This document shows, piece by piece, positions 2,605-19,246 of a stretch of 31,722 nucleotides of DNA. Position 1 is the first letter of the stretch. Every line of letters starts with the position of its first letter. Origin of the DNA: a virus; UHGV virus genome UHGV-0068509; one strand, 5' to 3'. The position numbers and the translations under genes were made by a program. The notes beneath the pieces are model-generated. The model searched no databases and had not been told where the DNA came from. It saw only the letters and a list, made by a program, of their open reading frames with translations.

Positions 2605-4356
2605 CTATTGTTCTGCTGTAATTTGGCTTGAAAGTATAGGGCGTATCGCATTTGCAGCATTATTTAGCGCTCTTTCATAGGCTGGTGTTCCTGCTTTGGT
2701 GTTTGCCAAACGTAAGAGAGCATTCCTGGCCATAGGGCTTTCATAAACCCTCGACATAAGGCCAATCCCTGTTTCCCCAGCCAATAGCGCGCCTCCGGTT
2801 TTTAGGTTACCAATAACCCTTACCAAAGGCGCGAGTGTCATGCCAGTCTTCGTCACAACATTAGCCTCAGATGCTCTTTTGGTAGCATCGAGAATAGATA
2901 ACATCCCCTCTATCTCTTTTCCGTTCTTCCCACCAAATACAGTTTTAAACACCTGACCATTTGCTTGTTTTTGCAGCTTGCCAAGCTCGGTCATCATTTT
3001 CTGAGGGCTGTCACCTACCTTGTCAGCTATTTTGCTGATATATGCCGCCCTTAGCATGTCTTTACCTTTTTGATCGAGTTTCCCGTACAATCGAGCTATA
3101 TCTGACCCATATTGTCCATACACAATGGTATTTACAGCCTCGGGAGTTAAATCTCCTTTGTTTAGAACGTTTTTAAGGCGCGTTTGAGTTACATGTGTTG
3201 CCATTTTTGCATAATCAGCTTTTCCCGCTCTCCATGCTGAAGCATCTTTTGGGCTAAGTCCTTTCGCTATAGATTTACTAAGGCTATTGGTTAGCGAGTT
3301 ATAGACCCTGTCGACCATTGTTTGCGACATTGGTGGCAGAACTGTACGATCGCCTTTTACGTCAATGCGGAACTGAGTTCTCAGCTTATCAAGTAACTCA
3401 AAGGCATCATCTCCATTTGTTATCTCCTGAATGGCATTCTTATAATCATTAAGCGCAGAAATGGTCTGGGTGTCAGAAACACCTTTAAGTTTCCCAAGTT
3501 CGTTTACTGCTCCGTCGATAGCTCTTATGGCGCCACTTGTATCAACTGGCTTTCCAACCATTCTTCCTGACAGGCTGTTTAGTTTTGACTTGGCTAACGA
3601 TTTTTCCCTTGCAACGCCTGACTTTAGACTATCAACGACTACAGATGGATCGTAGTCGCCGTATTTTTCGGTGAAGCGATTAACAAGCTTGGTTCTGGCA
3701 TCCTGCTGTGCGGCTCTCATTGGTCCAGTACCAGCTATGACTCCTTCTGAGTAACCCTGCAGTTGATTGCCAAGTTTTGTTTTTGGAGGAACTACATCCG
3801 ATGTCATAACTGGTACATCTGCCGCAGCGGCACGCTTGAGCAATTGCTGATCTGCTGGTGATATTTCGCCACGAACAGCAGTAATTCCACGCCCTATTCC
3901 CTTTGCTGCTGCGGAAAGAACCCCCTGAGCGGCAAGGTTAACTCCGGCGTTTCTTGCTGCATTTTGTGCGAAATCGCCTTTCTGATTTGCGGCCTCTGCC
4001 AGTGATCCAATAGCCATACTTCCTGCCGTTCCAACTCCTGGAACTAAATACCCGCCAATTGTTTCTCCAGCTTGAGCGTAGGAGTCTGTCGGTCTGTCTA
4101 CTGGACGATAGACATCATCCAATACTTTTGGCCCGCCTAACCCCTGACTAATAGCGTTAATCAGGCTTGCACCGCCCTGCAGCACATCGAACGGAATGTT
4201 TACCAGGCCGCGACCGGCCTGCTCTGCGCTCTGCAACAGAGACTGCTCTTGCGGTTGAGCTGGCTGCTCATCAAACTGATCAAAGAAGTTACCCTCTGCC
4301 GCTGGAGTTTCCGGTTGAGGGATGGCTTCATCAAATTGGTCGAAGAAATTCGCCAT
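2605..4356 (-). CDS. Ejection (internal virion) protein, P22 gp16-like
   Basis: 583-aa ORF in the gp7-gp20-gp16 position directly upstream of the tailspike; N-terminal duplicated NFFDQFDE motif; Gly/Ala-rich. Confidence 0.75.
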   Translation of the reverse strand: MANFFDQFDEAIPQPETPAAEGNFFDQFDEQPAQPQEQSLLQSAEQAGRGLVNIPFDVLQGGASLINAISQGLGGPKVLDDVYRPVDRPTDSYAQAGETIGGYLVPGVGTAGSMAIGSLAEAANQKGDFAQNAARNAGVNLAAQGVLSAAAKGIGRGITAVRGEISPADQQLLKRAAAADVPVMTSDVVPPKTKLGNQLQGYSEGVIAGTGPMRAAQQDARTKLVNRFTEKYGDYDPSVVVDSLKSGVAREKSLAKSKLNSLSGRMVGKPVDTSGAIRAIDGAVNELGKLKGVSDTQTISALNDYKNAIQEITNGDDAFELLDKLRTQFRIDVKGDRTVLPPMSQTMVDRVYNSLTNSLSKSIAKGLSPKDASAWRAGKADYAKMATHVTQTRLKNVLNKGDLTPEAVNTIVYGQYGSDIARLYGKLDQKGKDMLRAAYISKIADKVGDSPQKMMTELGKLQKQANGQVFKTVFGGKNGKEIEGMLSILDATKRASEANVVTKTGMTLAPLVRVIGNLKTGGALLAGETGIGLMSRVYESPMARNALLRLANTKAGTPAYERALNNAANAIRPILSSQITAEQ

Positions 4357-4366
4357 TACTCCCTCC

Positions 4367-5779
4367 TTATGGGAGATAGCCGTATTTAGCTTTGAACTGA
4401 GACGCTAATGCCGGGTTTGCTTTCAGTGCCTGGATAGCTGCTTCCGGTGCTTGCCCTGTTGTGCCTGCCTTCTGCTGATCCTTCTGTGATTTCCTTTCTG
4501 ACACATATGTATCGTATCCCTGCGAGCTGTAGCCCATAGATTCAGCTTCGCGGCCCGCCACCTTTTGCAGTACAGAATATTGGCTGCGAATTTCTCCAAG
4601 CTGCTTTTTCACCACGTCAGCTGGTTGTGTAACATCGAGGCGGGCGATCAGGTTTTCGAGCTTGCTTCCTTCTGCGTTCGAAAGTGCTCCCAAGCCTCTG
4701 AGCATCTGAACGTTCTGAACGAAAGCGCCAGATTTCAGTTCCTCAATAGCGTTTCTGTTTTCCAGCCCTTCAGCAGAGGTCATGGCGTCAGGGTAGCGAC
4801 CTTCAACCCGACCGACGCCTGCCAGGTCTCCCTTGTTCATCAGAGAGTCAATCTTCTCGATCCCCCTCTCGCCAGTGATTAGAGATTCGTTATATCCGTT
4901 ATTACCCTCAAGCCACTTTCTGGCCTGCCCCATTCGCGCGCCGGTTGCTGGCTTGCCGGTTAAAGGGTCAACTCCCGTAGAGGCGATTTGAGAGTTTAAC
5001 GCCAGGGTGTCCATGTCCTGAACGTCGCCATATTTTTTAAGCGCCGCCTGTGACTGCCTGTATACGTATTTATCGTGATTCAGACGAGCCATCTGAGCGC
5101 CATATGAGAGCTGCTGCCCCTGTCGCGTGGTGGCGTTCTGCATGTCAGCCTGACGGATGCTTTCATCCAATCGCCCTTTCTCAAGTTGGCGACCAACCAT
5201 CTTGTCCTGAACATTGAAGTAGTCAATCGGACCGAGAGCAGCCATCCCAAGGTGATCAACAAACTCACCAAATCCTGAAGGATTCTGCTGATACATCTGA
5301 GCAACGCTGTTAGGGTCAACACCTACGCGAGTCAGTTCCTTGGCGTTGTTTTGCAGCCATGATTGCATTGCTTCTGGAGACGAGGCAGCAAGGCGTGCGC
5401 CAGCCGCTAAGGTGCCGATAGAATTGCGCTGGTCTTCATCAATGAATCCCATGCCTTTACGAACGGATTCAATCTGGTCTGGATATTGAGTAGCTAACTG
5501 ACGCAAAGCACCGCGATCACCAGACGCATAAGCATTAGCGTATGCCTGCTGAAATTCTTTCTGCCGCTGAGCCTGCTTTTCCTGCTGAAACACCCCCGCA
5601 ATACCTGAAAGGCCTTGCAAAGCAGTCAGCCCAACATTGTTAGCGCCTGAACGCTCAATATCATTGTTCTGCCTGATAAGCTGAAGCGTATTGCCGATGT
5701 CATTTACGTTCGGAGCGTTTGAGTTGACGCCGCCGATACCAGCTAACAATCCGCCATTTGATCCTTGCCAAGTAGCCAT
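4367..5779 (-). CDS. Ejection protein, P22 gp20-like
   Basis: 470-aa ORF, N-terminus MATWQGSNGGLLAGIGG, Gln/Ala-rich; synteny between gp7-like and gp16-like. Confidence 0.8.
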   Translation of the reverse strand: MATWQGSNGGLLAGIGGVNSNAPNVNDIGNTLQLIRQNNDIERSGANNVGLTALQGLSGIAGVFQQEKQAQRQKEFQQAYANAYASGDRGALRQLATQYPDQIESVRKGMGFIDEDQRNSIGTLAAGARLAASSPEAMQSWLQNNAKELTRVGVDPNSVAQMYQQNPSGFGEFVDHLGMAALGPIDYFNVQDKMVGRQLEKGRLDESIRQADMQNATTRQGQQLSYGAQMARLNHDKYVYRQSQAALKKYGDVQDMDTLALNSQIASTGVDPLTGKPATGARMGQARKWLEGNNGYNESLITGERGIEKIDSLMNKGDLAGVGRVEGRYPDAMTSAEGLENRNAIEELKSGAFVQNVQMLRGLGALSNAEGSKLENLIARLDVTQPADVVKKQLGEIRSQYSVLQKVAGREAESMGYSSQGYDTYVSERKSQKDQQKAGTTGQAPEAAIQALKANPALASQFKAKYGYLP

Positions 5780-14209: not shown

Positions 14210-15705
14210 TATCCAACTCCGCAAGGTATGTTGTAGCTTGAGTAATCAATCTCTTTAGGATCTTTGATGTCTCGCATCTGTATTGCAAAACGCCTCATCA
14301 TGTAGCCATAGCGAACAGCAGAAAGGATGTCGTCATTTAGCTTGACGATCTTCCCGTTCTCATCGCGGTGATACAGGCGAAACTCTTCAAAGAATGGCTC
14401 GCAGGTGTTAAATACCTTGAAACGACCGTCGAGCATCATGTCGCGTATCTCTGCTATCCCGGGTTCGACCGCATTACCTCCATCAGGCCATGTTGCATGA
14501 TCTGGCAACATATCGAACCCAGCGTCGGCGTATTGTTCCTTGAGCTGAGCGCCGCCTCCCTTTTCGTGCTGATGCCCGTCATGAGGCCAAGCCGTAGGGG
14601 TGTTTTTGCTCCATGCTTTAACAGCACTCCATGCCTCTGTCGCCTTCTTCTGTTTGGCCTTCCAGACGCGAGAAAGATAAATCACGTCCTCGTCTTTATC
14701 CCACCAAAGCTGGATGTGTGCCTGTGGGTGATCCCATCCGAAGTCCATTGCATTGATGACGTAGAAGTGATCAGGACACTCGAACGGCTGACACTTAATA
14801 GTCTCTTCCGGTATCTGGAAGATTCGACCGCTACCCATCGTAGGAATACCGCGAGCACGCGCCTCTCTCTCATGCTCAGGATAGGATGCGATGATTTGCT
14901 CTTTCTGCTCGTCGGTATAGTGCTCAGCATCATAGATGGTCATGTTGACCACTTTCTGCGACTTGCTGGGATTCTTCAGGAACTTAGTAACAACGTCAGA
15001 CATCCCCATCAGCGGGGTAAACGTCAGAATTGAGAATTGCCCGTATTTGTTGGTACGGGTAAGACCTTCGCCATAAATGCTGTATGGTGGCTCTTCGTCA
15101 AACCACACGCCGTGGATTGTGTCACCCTGCCAGCGAGCACGGCCTTGCGAGTATGGTTTGAAGTAGCAGATTGAAATGCCATCTTCAACGCCATCAGCCG
15201 TGTGATGCTTAACCAGAAGGTGATCAACAAGGTTCGGAAAGAAAGGAGACTTCTTCCAGCTAATGATGTCCTCTTTCGGTATTGAACCGTAGCCCGGCTC
15301 ATCATTCTCTTCAATACGACCGCACAGGATGCGTTGAGTCGTTTTGGTTACAGTCTCGTTTGTCTCGCCACCAATCCAGAAGACAACAGGCTCATAAAAA
15401 CGCTTACCTTTCCACTCACCGCCATATTTACCATCAGCAGGATAGCCTTTTGTGCCCGGATAACGCCCTGTAAGGTGAAACGCTACTTCAGCAGCACCAG
15501 TAAATGACTTACCAAGCTGGTTACCAGCCATAAAACAGCGCTCTGGATAGTCATGCCCGGCGTCGATGAACTCACACTGTTTGCTGTATGGCGTAAATTC
15601 ATATAGCAGGTGTGTGTTCCGGTAGTTCTCTTCTTCTTCGAGTAGCTCGAGCAATTCGATTTGCTCTTCGTCGCTCAGGTTATCAAGAATCGCGTCCAGT
15701 TCCAC
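14209..15705 (-). CDS. terL: Terminase large subunit, P22 gp2-like
   Basis: 498-aa ORF; N-terminus [37 protein letters not shown] and ATPase/nuclease body match the P22-type headful terminase as I recall it. Confidence 0.9.
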
Positions 15706-16171
15706 GGTTGAATAGCTCCTTGATACGAGAGCGCCGCTTATCGCGATCTCCCTTATCAGGTGTCACGTCTTCAACTTGCGACTGCTCTTTGAGGCCCAAA
15801 TCACGGGCGATGATGTTAGCGTTGAGAAGGTCAGCGGCTGCGCCAGAGAATTTCTGGTCGTAGATGACCTGTTCTGCTCGCGTAACGACTTCAGATAAAT
15901 CTTCTCGCAGGCGATATGTGCGCCATGTTTCAAGCGTCACATCAATGAACAGAGTGAGGCCGGTAATGGTCATCGCTCGCATCTTGGCGATAGGCTCTTG
16001 TATCACTTCACCCTGATACGAGAACGCCTTCATCTCCCATAGCGGGTTAGCTTCTACCCACTCGAAGTATTCACAACAAGCAGCCCACAGCGCCTCAGGC
16101 GATTCGAATTTAGGATTTCGCCCATGACTACTGCGGGCCTCCCAAAATCGGTTGCCCTTTGGTGCTGCCAT
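15683..16171 (-). CDS. terS: Terminase small subunit, P22 gp3-like
   Basis: Start assigned to [17 protein letters not shown] (third Met of the ORF, best RBS spacing); contains the pac sequence in frame ([10 protein letters not shown]). Confidence 0.9.
15877..15904 (-). other. pac: P22-type pac site (packaging initiation) inside terS
   Basis: Minus-strand sequence GAAGATTTATCTGAAGTCGTTACGCGAG matches the P22 pac site as I recall it. Confidence 0.6.
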
Positions 16172-16178
16172 ATTCATC

Positions 16179-16370
16179 TCACTTAATTGTCATTTCAGGT
16201 CGTTGGCTCTTCATGCTTTCAATCAATGACTGCTTCAGCAATTCGAGTGTGCCAATCGCCTCACATACACTGATTTCACCATAATCATGGATGACGCTTT
16301 CCAGCCTCTCGTATAGCTCTTGAGTAATTGGGAATTTCTTCTCCTTACCCAAATTGATTACGCGGCTCAC
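16179..16370 (-). CDS. Small hypothetical protein (63 aa), GTG start, translationally coupled to the upstream ORF
   Basis: GGAG 6 nt upstream of GTG; start overlaps the TGA of the 80-aa ORF; helical acidic protein. Confidence 0.5.
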
Positions 16371-16371
16371 A

Positions 16372-16614
16372 TCATGCTCCGGTAGTGAACAGGTCTAACG
16401 CTTCCTTCGATTTACGCACCGCTTCAAATGTGCGGATCGTGATATCCGAATTAGCGCCGCCTGACTGGAAGTGAATTTTGAATAGCTCAAGCTTCAGTTC
16501 GTCAGTGCCAATGAACTGAAATGCTTCTTCTGCGGCTGCGTTCTGGTTCATGACCAGTTTGTAAATCTCTAACTGGAATTTCTGTTCTTCAGTCATGGGA
16601 ATAATCTCTGCCAT
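16372..16614 (-). CDS. Small hypothetical protein (80 aa)
   Basis: ATG with GGAG about 7 nt upstream; MAEIIPMTEEQKFQLEIYKLV... Confidence 0.55.
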   Translation of the reverse strand: MAEIIPMTEEQKFQLEIYKLVMNQNAAAEEAFQFIGTDELKLELFKIHFQSGGANSDITIRTFEAVRKSKEALDLFTTGA

Positions 16615-16716
16615 TGTTGGCTCCGTTTATCCGTTAAAAGGGATATCAGTTAAGTTATCCCGTGTAGGGTATAAGCCATTATCAAAGCCACTCTGCAAGG
16701 AATGGCTTTTGTGATG

Positions 16717-16744
16717 GCAATAAAAAGCCACACATATGCGTGGC
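16717..16744 (-). terminator. Putative intrinsic terminator immediately 3' of the protease gene
   Basis: Minus-strand hairpin GCCAC-GCATATGT-GTGGC followed by TTTTTATT. Confidence 0.45.
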
Positions 16745-16777
16745 CATATCATGTATAAAATCTTATACAACGAATGT

Positions 16778-17518
16778 TTATTTCGTAGGGAAAGATGTGA
16801 TCACATCAACGATGGGCTGGATTGAAAATCCAATACCAATTCCGGAGTTAGCATTCAGCGACATCATGTCCGAAACAATCTGTAGCGATCTACCAAACAT
16901 GTCCGCCATTTGCCCGAAATTAACACCCATGATCTCAACACTTCCATGCAGACTTGCTGAAGAAAGATATTGTCGCAGTTGGGCTATTTCTTGGCTGAAA
17001 GCATCAGCCTGATCGCCCATTATATATCTACGCTGGGTGACGATACCTACTAACTCTCCCGAATCTCGATCAATAATAGGTCCTCCTGAGTTCCCCCCAT
17101 TAACCATTCCATCAAGCGTAAATCGGCCATGCTCCATCGGTGCTGAAATAATTGCCTCACTTGTTAGTAACAGAGGTATCCCATGCGGGTATCCTGCAAA
17201 AATTACTTTTCTGCCCCTGGATGGAGCAAACCCAGCAGATGGTTGAAGGACTGTTCTTCCGCCAGGAAGGGGGGATTGCAATTGCATGATAGCAAAGTCG
17301 TTACTACCATCAACATGCAAAATTTTAGCGTCGATACTCTCATTTGCTTCAGTTTGAAGAATGACGTCATTGATTTGACACTCGGTTTGTAAGTCACAAC
17401 AGGTGGCCACAACATGCAAGTTAGTTACAACTAGGTTTTCTCGCATGAAACTGAACCCGCTACCACGAGACTTACCTGCAATGACCTGAAATGTTGCGTT
17501 GGCTAAGTTTTGATGCAT
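16778..17518 (-). CDS. Trypsin-like (S1/HtrA-type fold) serine protease, cytoplasmic, no PDZ domain
   Basis: 246-aa ORF with strong RBS GGAGGA; catalytic motifs in canonical order His (VVTNLHVV), Asp (DFAIMQL), Ser (GNSGGP); no N-terminal signal peptide; about 75-aa C-terminal tail ending GIGIGFSIQPIVDVI. Confidence 0.85.
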   Translation of the reverse strand: MHQNLANATFQVIAGKSRGSGFSFMRENLVVTNLHVVATCCDLQTECQINDVILQTEANESIDAKILHVDGSNDFAIMQLQSPLPGGRTVLQPSAGFAPSRGRKVIFAGYPHGIPLLLTSEAIISAPMEHGRFTLDGMVNGGNSGGPIIDRDSGELVGIVTQRRYIMGDQADAFSQEIAQLRQYLSSASLHGSVEIMGVNFGQMADMFGRSLQIVSDMMSLNANSGIGIGFSIQPIVDVITSFPTK

Positions 17519-17630
17519 TGAAATCCTCCGATTCTGGTTAGTGGAATTTCATAATGAACTCATTTCCCAGAATAATTGATATATCACATCAATTCACGCC
17601 CGGAATATTCAATACACCAATTGGCCCGTA

Positions 17631-18068
<438 letters not shown>

Positions 18069-18224
18069 TAAGGCAGGAGGTTCATCTTTCAGTGGCTGCC
18101 AGTGTTATTTCCCCACTTACTGGCTTGGGTTGTTTCGTGGTACTGCCGTTAACTGGTGGCCCAGAATAAATTCCGGTTTCATTATCAAGCCCACCCGTAG
18201 ATGGGCTTTGTAATGCCTACATGG

Positions 18225-18695
18225 TTAAATGATTTGCCAGTCTTCTGCTAGAACATCAGTCTGACTAGCCAGCCACGGTACTAATTTATCGTCCGCTGTC
18301 TTCATGCAAATGCATGGCAGCGTCACAAGGCCATTAACTCCGTCCAGGTCACACTCAAACCCCCAAGCATTCTGCTGGATAATGAACAGATACATCCCCT
18401 TACCATTCCAGCCAGCACGGGCAACTTTATTCCCCAACTTGAGCGCTTCAATGGCAAGGCCGAAACTTAGCCCTGATACCGGACGATAAGCCTTTTCGAA
18501 TACTTCTTTTGGACTCCAGCTAACGTAGCCATCAAAGCGATCGGTGTTAGGTTTTCCGCCATCAAGATATTCAACCAGATAGCCTTCATCCTCGCCGTTT
18601 TCTCCGGCAGGAAGCTGCCAGCCACGAAAATCGTTATATGCCTGTCTCGTCATCGGAAAGGCGTTAATCAGTTTTACGCCAATATGCTGGGTCAT
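18225..18695 (-). CDS. DUF2829-family protein (Tad2-like candidate Thoeris anti-defence sponge fold) with an extra N-terminal region
   Basis: C-terminal half AIEALKLGNKVARAGWNGKGMYLFI...MKTADDKLVPWLASQTDVLAEDWQII resembles the DUF2829 consensus as I recall it; start uncertain (ATG at 18695 used; an in-frame GTG at 18788 would give 187 aa). Confidence 0.55.
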   Translation of the reverse strand: MTQHIGVKLINAFPMTRQAYNDFRGWQLPAGENGEDEGYLVEYLDGGKPNTDRFDGYVSWSPKEVFEKAYRPVSGLSFGLAIEALKLGNKVARAGWNGKGMYLFIIQQNAWGFECDLDGVNGLVTLPCICMKTADDKLVPWLASQTDVLAEDWQII

Positions 18696-18775
18696 AAAAT
18701 TACCTATAGAGTTGGGAATAAAAAGCCCCGCATCGCGAGGCTCATTAAATGGACTTTGTGATTTGCAAAACGTGT

Positions 18776-19246
18776 TTATTTCAGGCACTGCTCTTTGATG
18801 TATTCCTGCAGATAGCCAACCTGCTTCGTCACTGTGACGATTCGCTCTCTGAGGGTGAAATAATCCCGTTCAGCGGAGTCAGTAAGTCGGGGGCCGGTAA
18901 CATCGCCCAGGCCGCCGGTGCTGGTCGTTCCGTTCGCGGGACAGTTTGCGTTGAGCTGCAGCCGCTTACGGCCAGCAATGACATCGCTATGCAGACGCTC
19001 AATGGTTTCTTTCGCATCAGCCAGTTCTCCGGTGTATTTGGCATCCAGTGCAGCGACATCACGCTGGCGGGTCTGCATGTCTTTAATGGTGGCGGTCGCC
19101 AGGAGGAGTTTCTCAGTGGCCTTATCGCGCTGGTCTCTGTAAGTGATGGCGTTGTCGCGGTAGTGGTTCACGAAGAAAGCCAGTGCGCCGATTAACGCCA
19201 GCACCAGCAACTGCAGCCAGTAACGCTTAACCAGTGCGCTAATCAT
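18776..19246 (-). CDS. Rz: Rz-like i-spanin
   Basis: N-terminal TMD ([26 protein letters not shown]), [20 protein letters not shown] and C-terminal ...[10 protein letters not shown]...EQC similar to lambda Rz; ATG overlaps the endolysin stop. Confidence 0.9.
18829..19017 (-). CDS. Rz1: Rz1-like o-spanin (lipoprotein) embedded in the +1 frame of Rz
   Basis: [20 protein letters not shown] lipobox signal followed by a Pro-rich mature region; nested in Rz. Confidence 0.75.

Follow-up and report, generated by a model that had tools for sequence, protein, structure and literature searches.

Two small, closely spaced genes lie between the lysis and packaging genes of a P22-like prophage, at positions 16,179 to 16,614 of UHGV virus genome UHGV-0068509, and the question raised by this locus is what they contribute to the phage. 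The whole stretch of 31,722 nucleotides analyzed here is referred to as the window, and the two genes as orfA and orfB. The answer favored, with roughly even confidence, is that they are separate, non-essential accessory genes of the late operon, encoding small binding proteins that are of benefit only under certain conditions.

Gene content and coding status of the locus

All genes from Q to portal are on the minus strand, orfA and orfB included, in the order Q antiterminator, holin, lysozyme, Rz, Tad2-like gene, 59-aa ORF, trypsin-like protease, terminator, orfA, orfB, terS, terL and portal (Table 1). This is a late-operon context. The preliminary description reported an 80-aa and a 63-aa ORF with good RBSs between the protease terminator and terS. 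Both ORFs are present on the minus strand, with the terminator hairpin (16745-16726) upstream and terS downstream. A GGAG precedes each start by 6 nt, and that of orfB (16380-16377) falls within the last codons of orfA. The GTG of the second ORF had been described as overlapping the first one's stop, but the junction reads TGAtGTG, with a single base between the stop and the GTG; the ATG that overlaps the orfA TGA is out of frame. The mechanical ORF call begins terS at ATG 16177 (MNMAAPK...). However, terS probably begins in fact at the second ATG, 16171 (MAAPK..., 162 aa), given the annotated start of P22 gene 3 in the alignment and the RBS spacing. This second ATG is 7 nt past the orfB stop, with GTGAG as its RBS. 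No paralogues of orfA or orfB were found elsewhere in the window, and a scan of the genome contigs for orfB identified a single locus.

Table 1. Positions of features in and around the orfA-orfB locus of the window
Feature	Position	Strand	Basis and details
orfA, 80 aa	16614-16372	minus	ORF call; ATG 16614-16612, stop TGA 16374-16372
GGAG RBS of orfA	16624-16621	minus	from sequence; 6 nt 5' of ATG
orfB, 63 aa	16370-16179	minus	ORF call; GTG 16370-16368, stop TGA 16181-16179
orfA/orfB junction, GGAGCATGATGTG	16380-16368	minus	orfB RBS, orfA TGA, 1 nt, orfB GTG
terS, P22 gp3 type	15683-16177	minus	PF16677, 3.6e-33; phrog_606
Intrinsic terminator after protease stop, GGCCACGCAUAUGUGUGGCU + UUUUU	16745-16718 (hairpin 16745-16726 + T run)	minus	terminator scan; hairpin in fold
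Structured non-coding element directly 5' of orfA RBS	16626-16715	minus	conservation and fold
Trypsin-like serine protease, 246 aa	16778-17518	minus	PF13365
59-aa ORF, no family, 5' of protease	17631-17810	minus	
187-aa protein with C-terminal Tad2-like (Thoeris anti-defence 2) domain	18225-18788	minus	PF11195, 1.4e-26; phrog_872

Coding status was assessed with 120 distinct orfA and 59 distinct orfB DNA sequences from 168 related loci. In the annotated frames, pN/pS is 0.15 for orfA and 0.10 for orfB, compared with 0.67 to 4.6 in shifted control frames. Thus, orfA and orfB are genuine protein-coding genes. The orfB GTG start and the 1-nt spacing are retained in 108-109 of 110 loci, and the TGAtGTG junction is identical in 108 of 109. 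Distant orfB relatives carry an ATG start at the aligned position.

Judged by sequence, orfA and orfB are the orthologues of P22 orf80 and orf59c (NP_059625.1, NP_597915.1), Sf6 gp67 and gp68, and HK620 hkbM and hkbN, which likewise lie directly upstream of the small terminase gene. The earlier suggestion that these may be conserved P22-like small proteins, to be checked against P22-like phage genomes, is therefore borne out: the pair is found at the equivalent position upstream of terS in all three phages, and nucleotide identity across the region is 97.9% with Sf6 genes 67/68, 94.3% with hkbM/hkbN and 93.3% with orf80/orf59c. orfA shares 96-100% amino acid identity with its three counterparts. 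orfB shares 95% with Sf6 gp68 over its full length, and approximately 91-92% with the P22 and HK620 proteins over residues 1-54. Both genes thus already have annotations and names in these model phages. The TGAtGTG junction is common to the window and all three phages. The window joins a 63-aa orfB with an Sf6-type C-terminal tail to a P22-type terS, whereas P22 has a 59-aa form of orfB and a 23-nt spacer.

In complete E. coli genomes, a 601-nt query holding the pair and its flanks is matched over at least 80% of its length in 142 of 5,426. Fragments of the query, or the adjacent non-coding element, are matched in approximately 2,560 genomes, most of which are probably explained by the element (16626-16715). 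It comprises two hairpins, the second followed by UUUU, and its sequence variation is concentrated in one loop; the intergenic region 16610-16780 as a whole has a folding energy of -54.9 kcal/mol, with z = -5.3. At 94-98% identity, the element also occurs in Shigella phage Ss-VASD, in HK97/HK022-like phages and in Stx2-converting phages, all of which lack a complete orfA, although 28 codons from its start persist in the HK97/HK022-like phages. The position of the element was examined at two loci, in Stx2a_WGPS8 and Ss-VASD, where it lies 3' of an hkbK/hkbL-like gene pair, with a KilA-N annotation in WGPS8. The element may be a terminator or a processing site. Rfam gave no match over 15500-18500, no sigma-70-like promoter was found on the minus strand of 16615-16780, and folding revealed no inhibitory RNA structure around the starts of orfB and terS (z-scores +0.5 and +1.0).

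The genes upstream of orfA differ between phages, with the Tad2-like gene, the 59-aa ORF and the protease in the window, rha/orf25/pid in P22 and KilA-N/hkbL in HK620. The preliminary description proposed that the pair may be partners of the protease module. Among 138 related loci with enough upstream sequence, a protease homologue (53% identity) is present in just one (L109), and the P22, Sf6 and HK620 pairs are without a protease. Thus, the protease is not a partner. The 59-aa ORF is also found in L109 (69% identity), and the two genes constitute a rare two-gene cargo of the slot between lysis and terminase genes. The protease resembles protease domains of defence systems in PADLOC (RT-Protease_XI, 2e-15; Avs1b; LmuA). 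The cargo may be a prophage-borne defence or effector module. The Tad2-like gene lies right after Rz in this late accessory slot, and is found in 22 of the 138 loci.

orfA as border gene of the packaging module

orfA is a member of Pfam DUF2560 (PF10834; 2.6e-42, 143.3 bits against a cut-off of 25), residues 5-76 matching model positions 1-72 of 72, and of phrog_571 (6e-41). DUF2560 is a family without assigned function or solved structure. Its members in Klebsiella, Proteus and E. coli phages are also found between the lysis cassette and terS. However, these distant members are not joined to terS as orfA is. With 31-44% identity (ST64T-type, Klebsiella, Proteus and E. coli siphophage genes), they are followed by other genes before terS, and in distant phages DUF2560 is parted from terS by both these further genes and its own hairpin. 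E. coli K-12 YbcW, which occupies the same position upstream of nohD in DLP12, was considered as a DUF2560 relative and rejected (hhalign 0.3%, no Pfam hit).

To the 3' side, 83 loci were compared: 80 from IMG/VR, with 99-100% identity in the orfA protein, and three references, P22, HK620 and ST64T, in the last of which orfA is only 44% identical. A P22-type terS follows orfA directly in 16 loci and with orfB in between in 19. The corresponding numbers for the Sf6/HK620-type terS are 11 and 8. A third, 145-aa terS type follows orfA in 22 loci, and a 129-aa HExxH protein plus a 134-aa protein precede terS in 5. The gene that comes next begins, without exception, 1-3 nt past the orfA stop, and the conserved orfA 3' end (ACCGGAGCAT + stop) embeds the GGAG that is the RBS for the following gene, be it orfB, terS or another. 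From this invariable spacing and the common GGAG before varied genes, orfA is the gene that consistently borders the packaging module in P22-like prophages, and its 3' end appears to act as a portable translation-coupling joint.

Recombination has also occurred within orfA. In HK97/HK022-like and mEp phages only the first 28 codons are left (1501-1584 in the HK97 locus, L173), fused just 5' of the HNH endonuclease that opens the HK97-type packaging module, showing that orfA itself is a frequent recombination joint. The family phrog_23132 is seemingly built on this 28-codon remnant. Other arrangements were observed around the joint. In ST64T-type loci (3247-4040 in ST64T itself, L003; also L057, L061, L073 and L074), the 129-aa HExxH and 134-aa proteins, which belong to no Pfam family, replace orfB, and in L169 a 104-aa HExxH protein (4687-5001) is encoded directly 5' of a distant orfB relative. 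In the orfB-less loci L028, L037, L046, L066, L033 and L020, a 23-codon mini-ORF (MATQGFDNPSKFRDEWDKQAEGK) begins 2 nt past the orfA stop, before terS. An inverted repeat within orfA (16493-16520) was considered as a possible element of RNA or DNA. Its variable stem positions are found in all four combinations, and thus without covariation; the repeat is due to chance.

An alternative to the accessory reading is that orfA, with or without orfB, is packaging-associated, modulating terminase assembly, pac recognition, the timing of packaging or, as a leader cistron, the level of terS translation. The location of orfA is compatible with this, as it is invariably the final gene ahead of the packaging module in P22-like phages and supplies the RBS of the gene 1-3 nt away, and even the distant Klebsiella, Proteus and E. 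coli siphophage genes keep their place between lysis genes and terS, although parted from it as described above. However, the 99-100% identical orfA precedes three unrelated terS families (clusters C3, C5 and C6) and different terL types, which argues against specific contact of the protein with terS. Some orfB relatives are found between terL and portal or between coat and gp4, but many others are in early regions. P22 terminase activity is known to need only gp2 and gp3.

The P22 orthologue of orfA also bears on this alternative. In P22 UC-0937, a CamR cassette takes the place of orf25 and pid, and orf80 is reduced to a fragment; of orf80, the working phage of bioRxiv 10.1101/2023.08.15.553423 retains only a fragment. 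With a P22 delta(orf25-orf80)::Km prophage, phage still lyse and lysogenise (PMC11016777). From these papers, orf80 is dispensable in P22, since phage in which it is disrupted or deleted grow and lysogenise. On balance, a role in packaging is considered unlikely, and orfA and orfB are unlikely to serve the terminase or the protease as subunits or dedicated partners. A specific link to terS is not supported either, given the three unrelated terS after the same orfA, the lack of orfB in about two thirds of loci and the location of orfB relatives in other regions. Literature searches on the function of orf80/orf59c, DUF2560, hkbM and both PHROGs returned nothing relevant; the "ORF80" of Stx2 phage Sp5 is an unrelated gene of 2,793 aa.

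orfB, an optional gene of a wide family

In contrast to orfA, which is constant, orfB is present in 28 of the 83 loci and missing from the other 55. It is found with two of the three terS clusters, and is often absent there too. Among complete phage records, 170 contain orfA and 44 contain orfB. Twelve orfB-less loci appear to carry a clean internal deletion, in which the initial bases and the final ~25 nt of the 63-aa form remain. The apparent scar, TGATG followed by CTCAACCTGAAATAAC.ATTAAGTGAGATGAATATG, lies just after orfA in loci with P22-type terS (L005, L010, L011, L015, L024 and others).

orfB matches phrog_3546 (E = 1.7e-38, with residues 1-57 aligned to positions 1-58 of the 59-position profile) and no Pfam family. 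With an exhaustive profile search, the family contains at least 166 cluster representatives at 50% identity, mostly of 53-67 aa, with the consensus M..V..L...K.FP...EL..RI...I.EY.G..SL....GVLEL.K..LI. All 56 sampled relatives match phrog_3546, which is annotated as "unknown function", and none matches a Pfam family. Some relatives have N-terminal extensions; these carry no Pfam domain, and were rejected as informative domain fusions.

The phrog_3546 relatives are encoded in many genomic contexts. In a Providencia phage the relative is part of the nin region; Serratia and related prophages carry it in the ea region by the integrase, and larger phages in early regions or among genes of nucleic-acid metabolism. 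Other relatives lie between terL and a Mu-F-like gene, between coat and gp4 in another P22-like phage, and 5' of a capsid gene. No conserved neighbor of the distant relatives was found. Such scattered contexts without a conserved neighbor are the pattern of a free-standing small accessory gene. However, 4 of 10 contexts, the window included, are in head or packaging modules; together with the retained place of orfA between lysis genes and terS in distant relatives, this could point to a morphogenesis-related role instead.

The variable presence of orfB resembles that of the "moron" cargo in the slot between lysis and terminase genes (P22 rha/pid, HK620 KilA-N, lambda bor), which is dispensable and located in the same late-operon region. 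Unlike this cargo, the orfA/orfB pair has no promoter or terminator of its own, and orfA is constant rather than variable. P22 pid is also transcribed from the opposite strand.

Predicted protein properties and possible roles

The preliminary description characterized both proteins as acidic and helical, compatible with small regulators or inhibitors. This holds for orfA, with a pI of 4.7 and three predicted helices, although its AF2 model (pLDDT 60.1) is too poor to interpret. It does not fully describe orfB. While both families are acidic, with a median pI of 4.7 and a median charge of -4.4 in the orfB family, the 63-aa form in the window is only mildly so (pI 5.8), and its AF2 model (pLDDT 75.5) has a predicted beta-hairpin (2-6/12-16) as well as two helices (17-28 and 35-55). 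Searches with both proteins against PDB chains, by sequence and profile, yielded nothing meaningful and nothing below E = 0.03, and Foldseek with the AF2 models against PDB and BFVD gave no match with E < 0.5. Neither protein has a match in PADLOC or NCBIfam, and neither shows similarity to known defence or anti-defence proteins in these databases or in Pfam. No significant sequence or fold relative of either protein was found; the two may be small regulators or inhibitors.

Beyond the accessory reading, the orfB family might represent a new class of small phage inhibitors, acting late against host defence or a competing mobile element, and DUF2560 might be a second, independent factor of this kind that became established at the edge of the packaging genes. 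As another possibility, the two might act on a head-filling step common to unrelated phages. This proposal is regarded as decidedly unlikely.

It was also considered whether orfB is a ribbon-helix-helix (RHH) DNA-binding regulator, possibly toxin-antitoxin-like or forming a regulator pair with orfA, as would fit two coupled small genes. RHH proteins (Arc, Mnt, CopG and the N-domains of ParD/PrpA) are like the predicted orfB in size and in the order strand-helix-helix, and in the model residues 12-16 (strand), 17-28 and 35-55 (helices) follow this order with a turn G-E-I-S (G-x-x-S). However, RHH proteins have a single N-terminal strand where a hairpin is predicted for orfB, and there is no significant similarity in sequence, profile or fold. 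PrpA (7ycv_B, E = 5.7, TMq 0.47), ParD (7ycw_D) and Arc (1u9p) do appear among the Foldseek matches of orfB, but all of these matches have E > 5. In Pfam searches at E up to 1 with 56 orfB members, no RHH family was found apart from one match at E = 0.18; hhalign probabilities were 3.6% against P22 Arc and 0.3% against Mnt, and PDB profile searches with orfB were empty. Membership of the RHH superfamily is thus not supported. The acidity of the orfB family is a further, weak argument against DNA binding. As for a toxin-antitoxin pair, no toxin or antitoxin domain is present in either protein (Pfam, NCBIfam, PADLOC), and orfA lacks orfB in about two thirds of loci while orfB relatives occur without orfA or DUF2560, so the two are not an obligate pair. 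This family of explanations is very improbable.

Similarly improbable is that the region is mainly a DNA-level homology block, a module-boundary "linker" for recombination to which the proteins contribute little: it is 93-98% identical across phages with unrelated flanking modules, and has mosaic breakpoints at the orfA stop, inside orfA (HK97-like, 28 codons) and at the orfB 3' end, but only in the annotated frames do its substitutions show a strong bias toward synonymous sites, and divergent relatives exist at the protein level (31-44% identity in DUF2560, down to ~30% in the orfB family), which shows selection on the orfA and orfB proteins.

For the favored explanation, that of separate accessory genes, the following mechanism can be proposed from the anatomy of the locus. 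A late, Q-antiterminated transcript would carry orfA and orfB together with the lysis and packaging genes, reading through the terminator at 16745-16726. orfA would be translated from its own GGAG, and ribosomes ending at its TGA may restart at the orfB GTG 1 nt on, by way of the GGAG in the last orfA codons. In the 63-aa variant, this coupling may extend to terS, 7 nt past the orfB stop. orfA is the fixed left-hand border gene, its 3' joint giving an RBS to orfB, to one of the three terS types or to other cargo. orfB is optional cargo in this joint, drawn from a family of ~55-63 aa, mostly acidic proteins encoded in accessory, early and head regions of unrelated phages. Each protein alone would be a small stoichiometric binding protein, the target of which may be a host component or something common to these phages. 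In this sense, the two may be host-modulating or counter-defence-like factors whose benefit is conditional. Functions in counter-defence are not usually expressed late, which weighs against the counter-defence-like version.

orfA and orfB are among the few genes still uncharacterised in P22, a model phage, and in the related phages Sf6 and HK620. The pair is already annotated in many phages, and the current understanding of them is unchanged. What is added here is the role of orfA as border gene and apparent coupling joint, the optional nature of orfB and the breadth of the orfB family. Neither gene shows a link to the protease or to a single type of terminase, and these results narrow the range of useful experiments.
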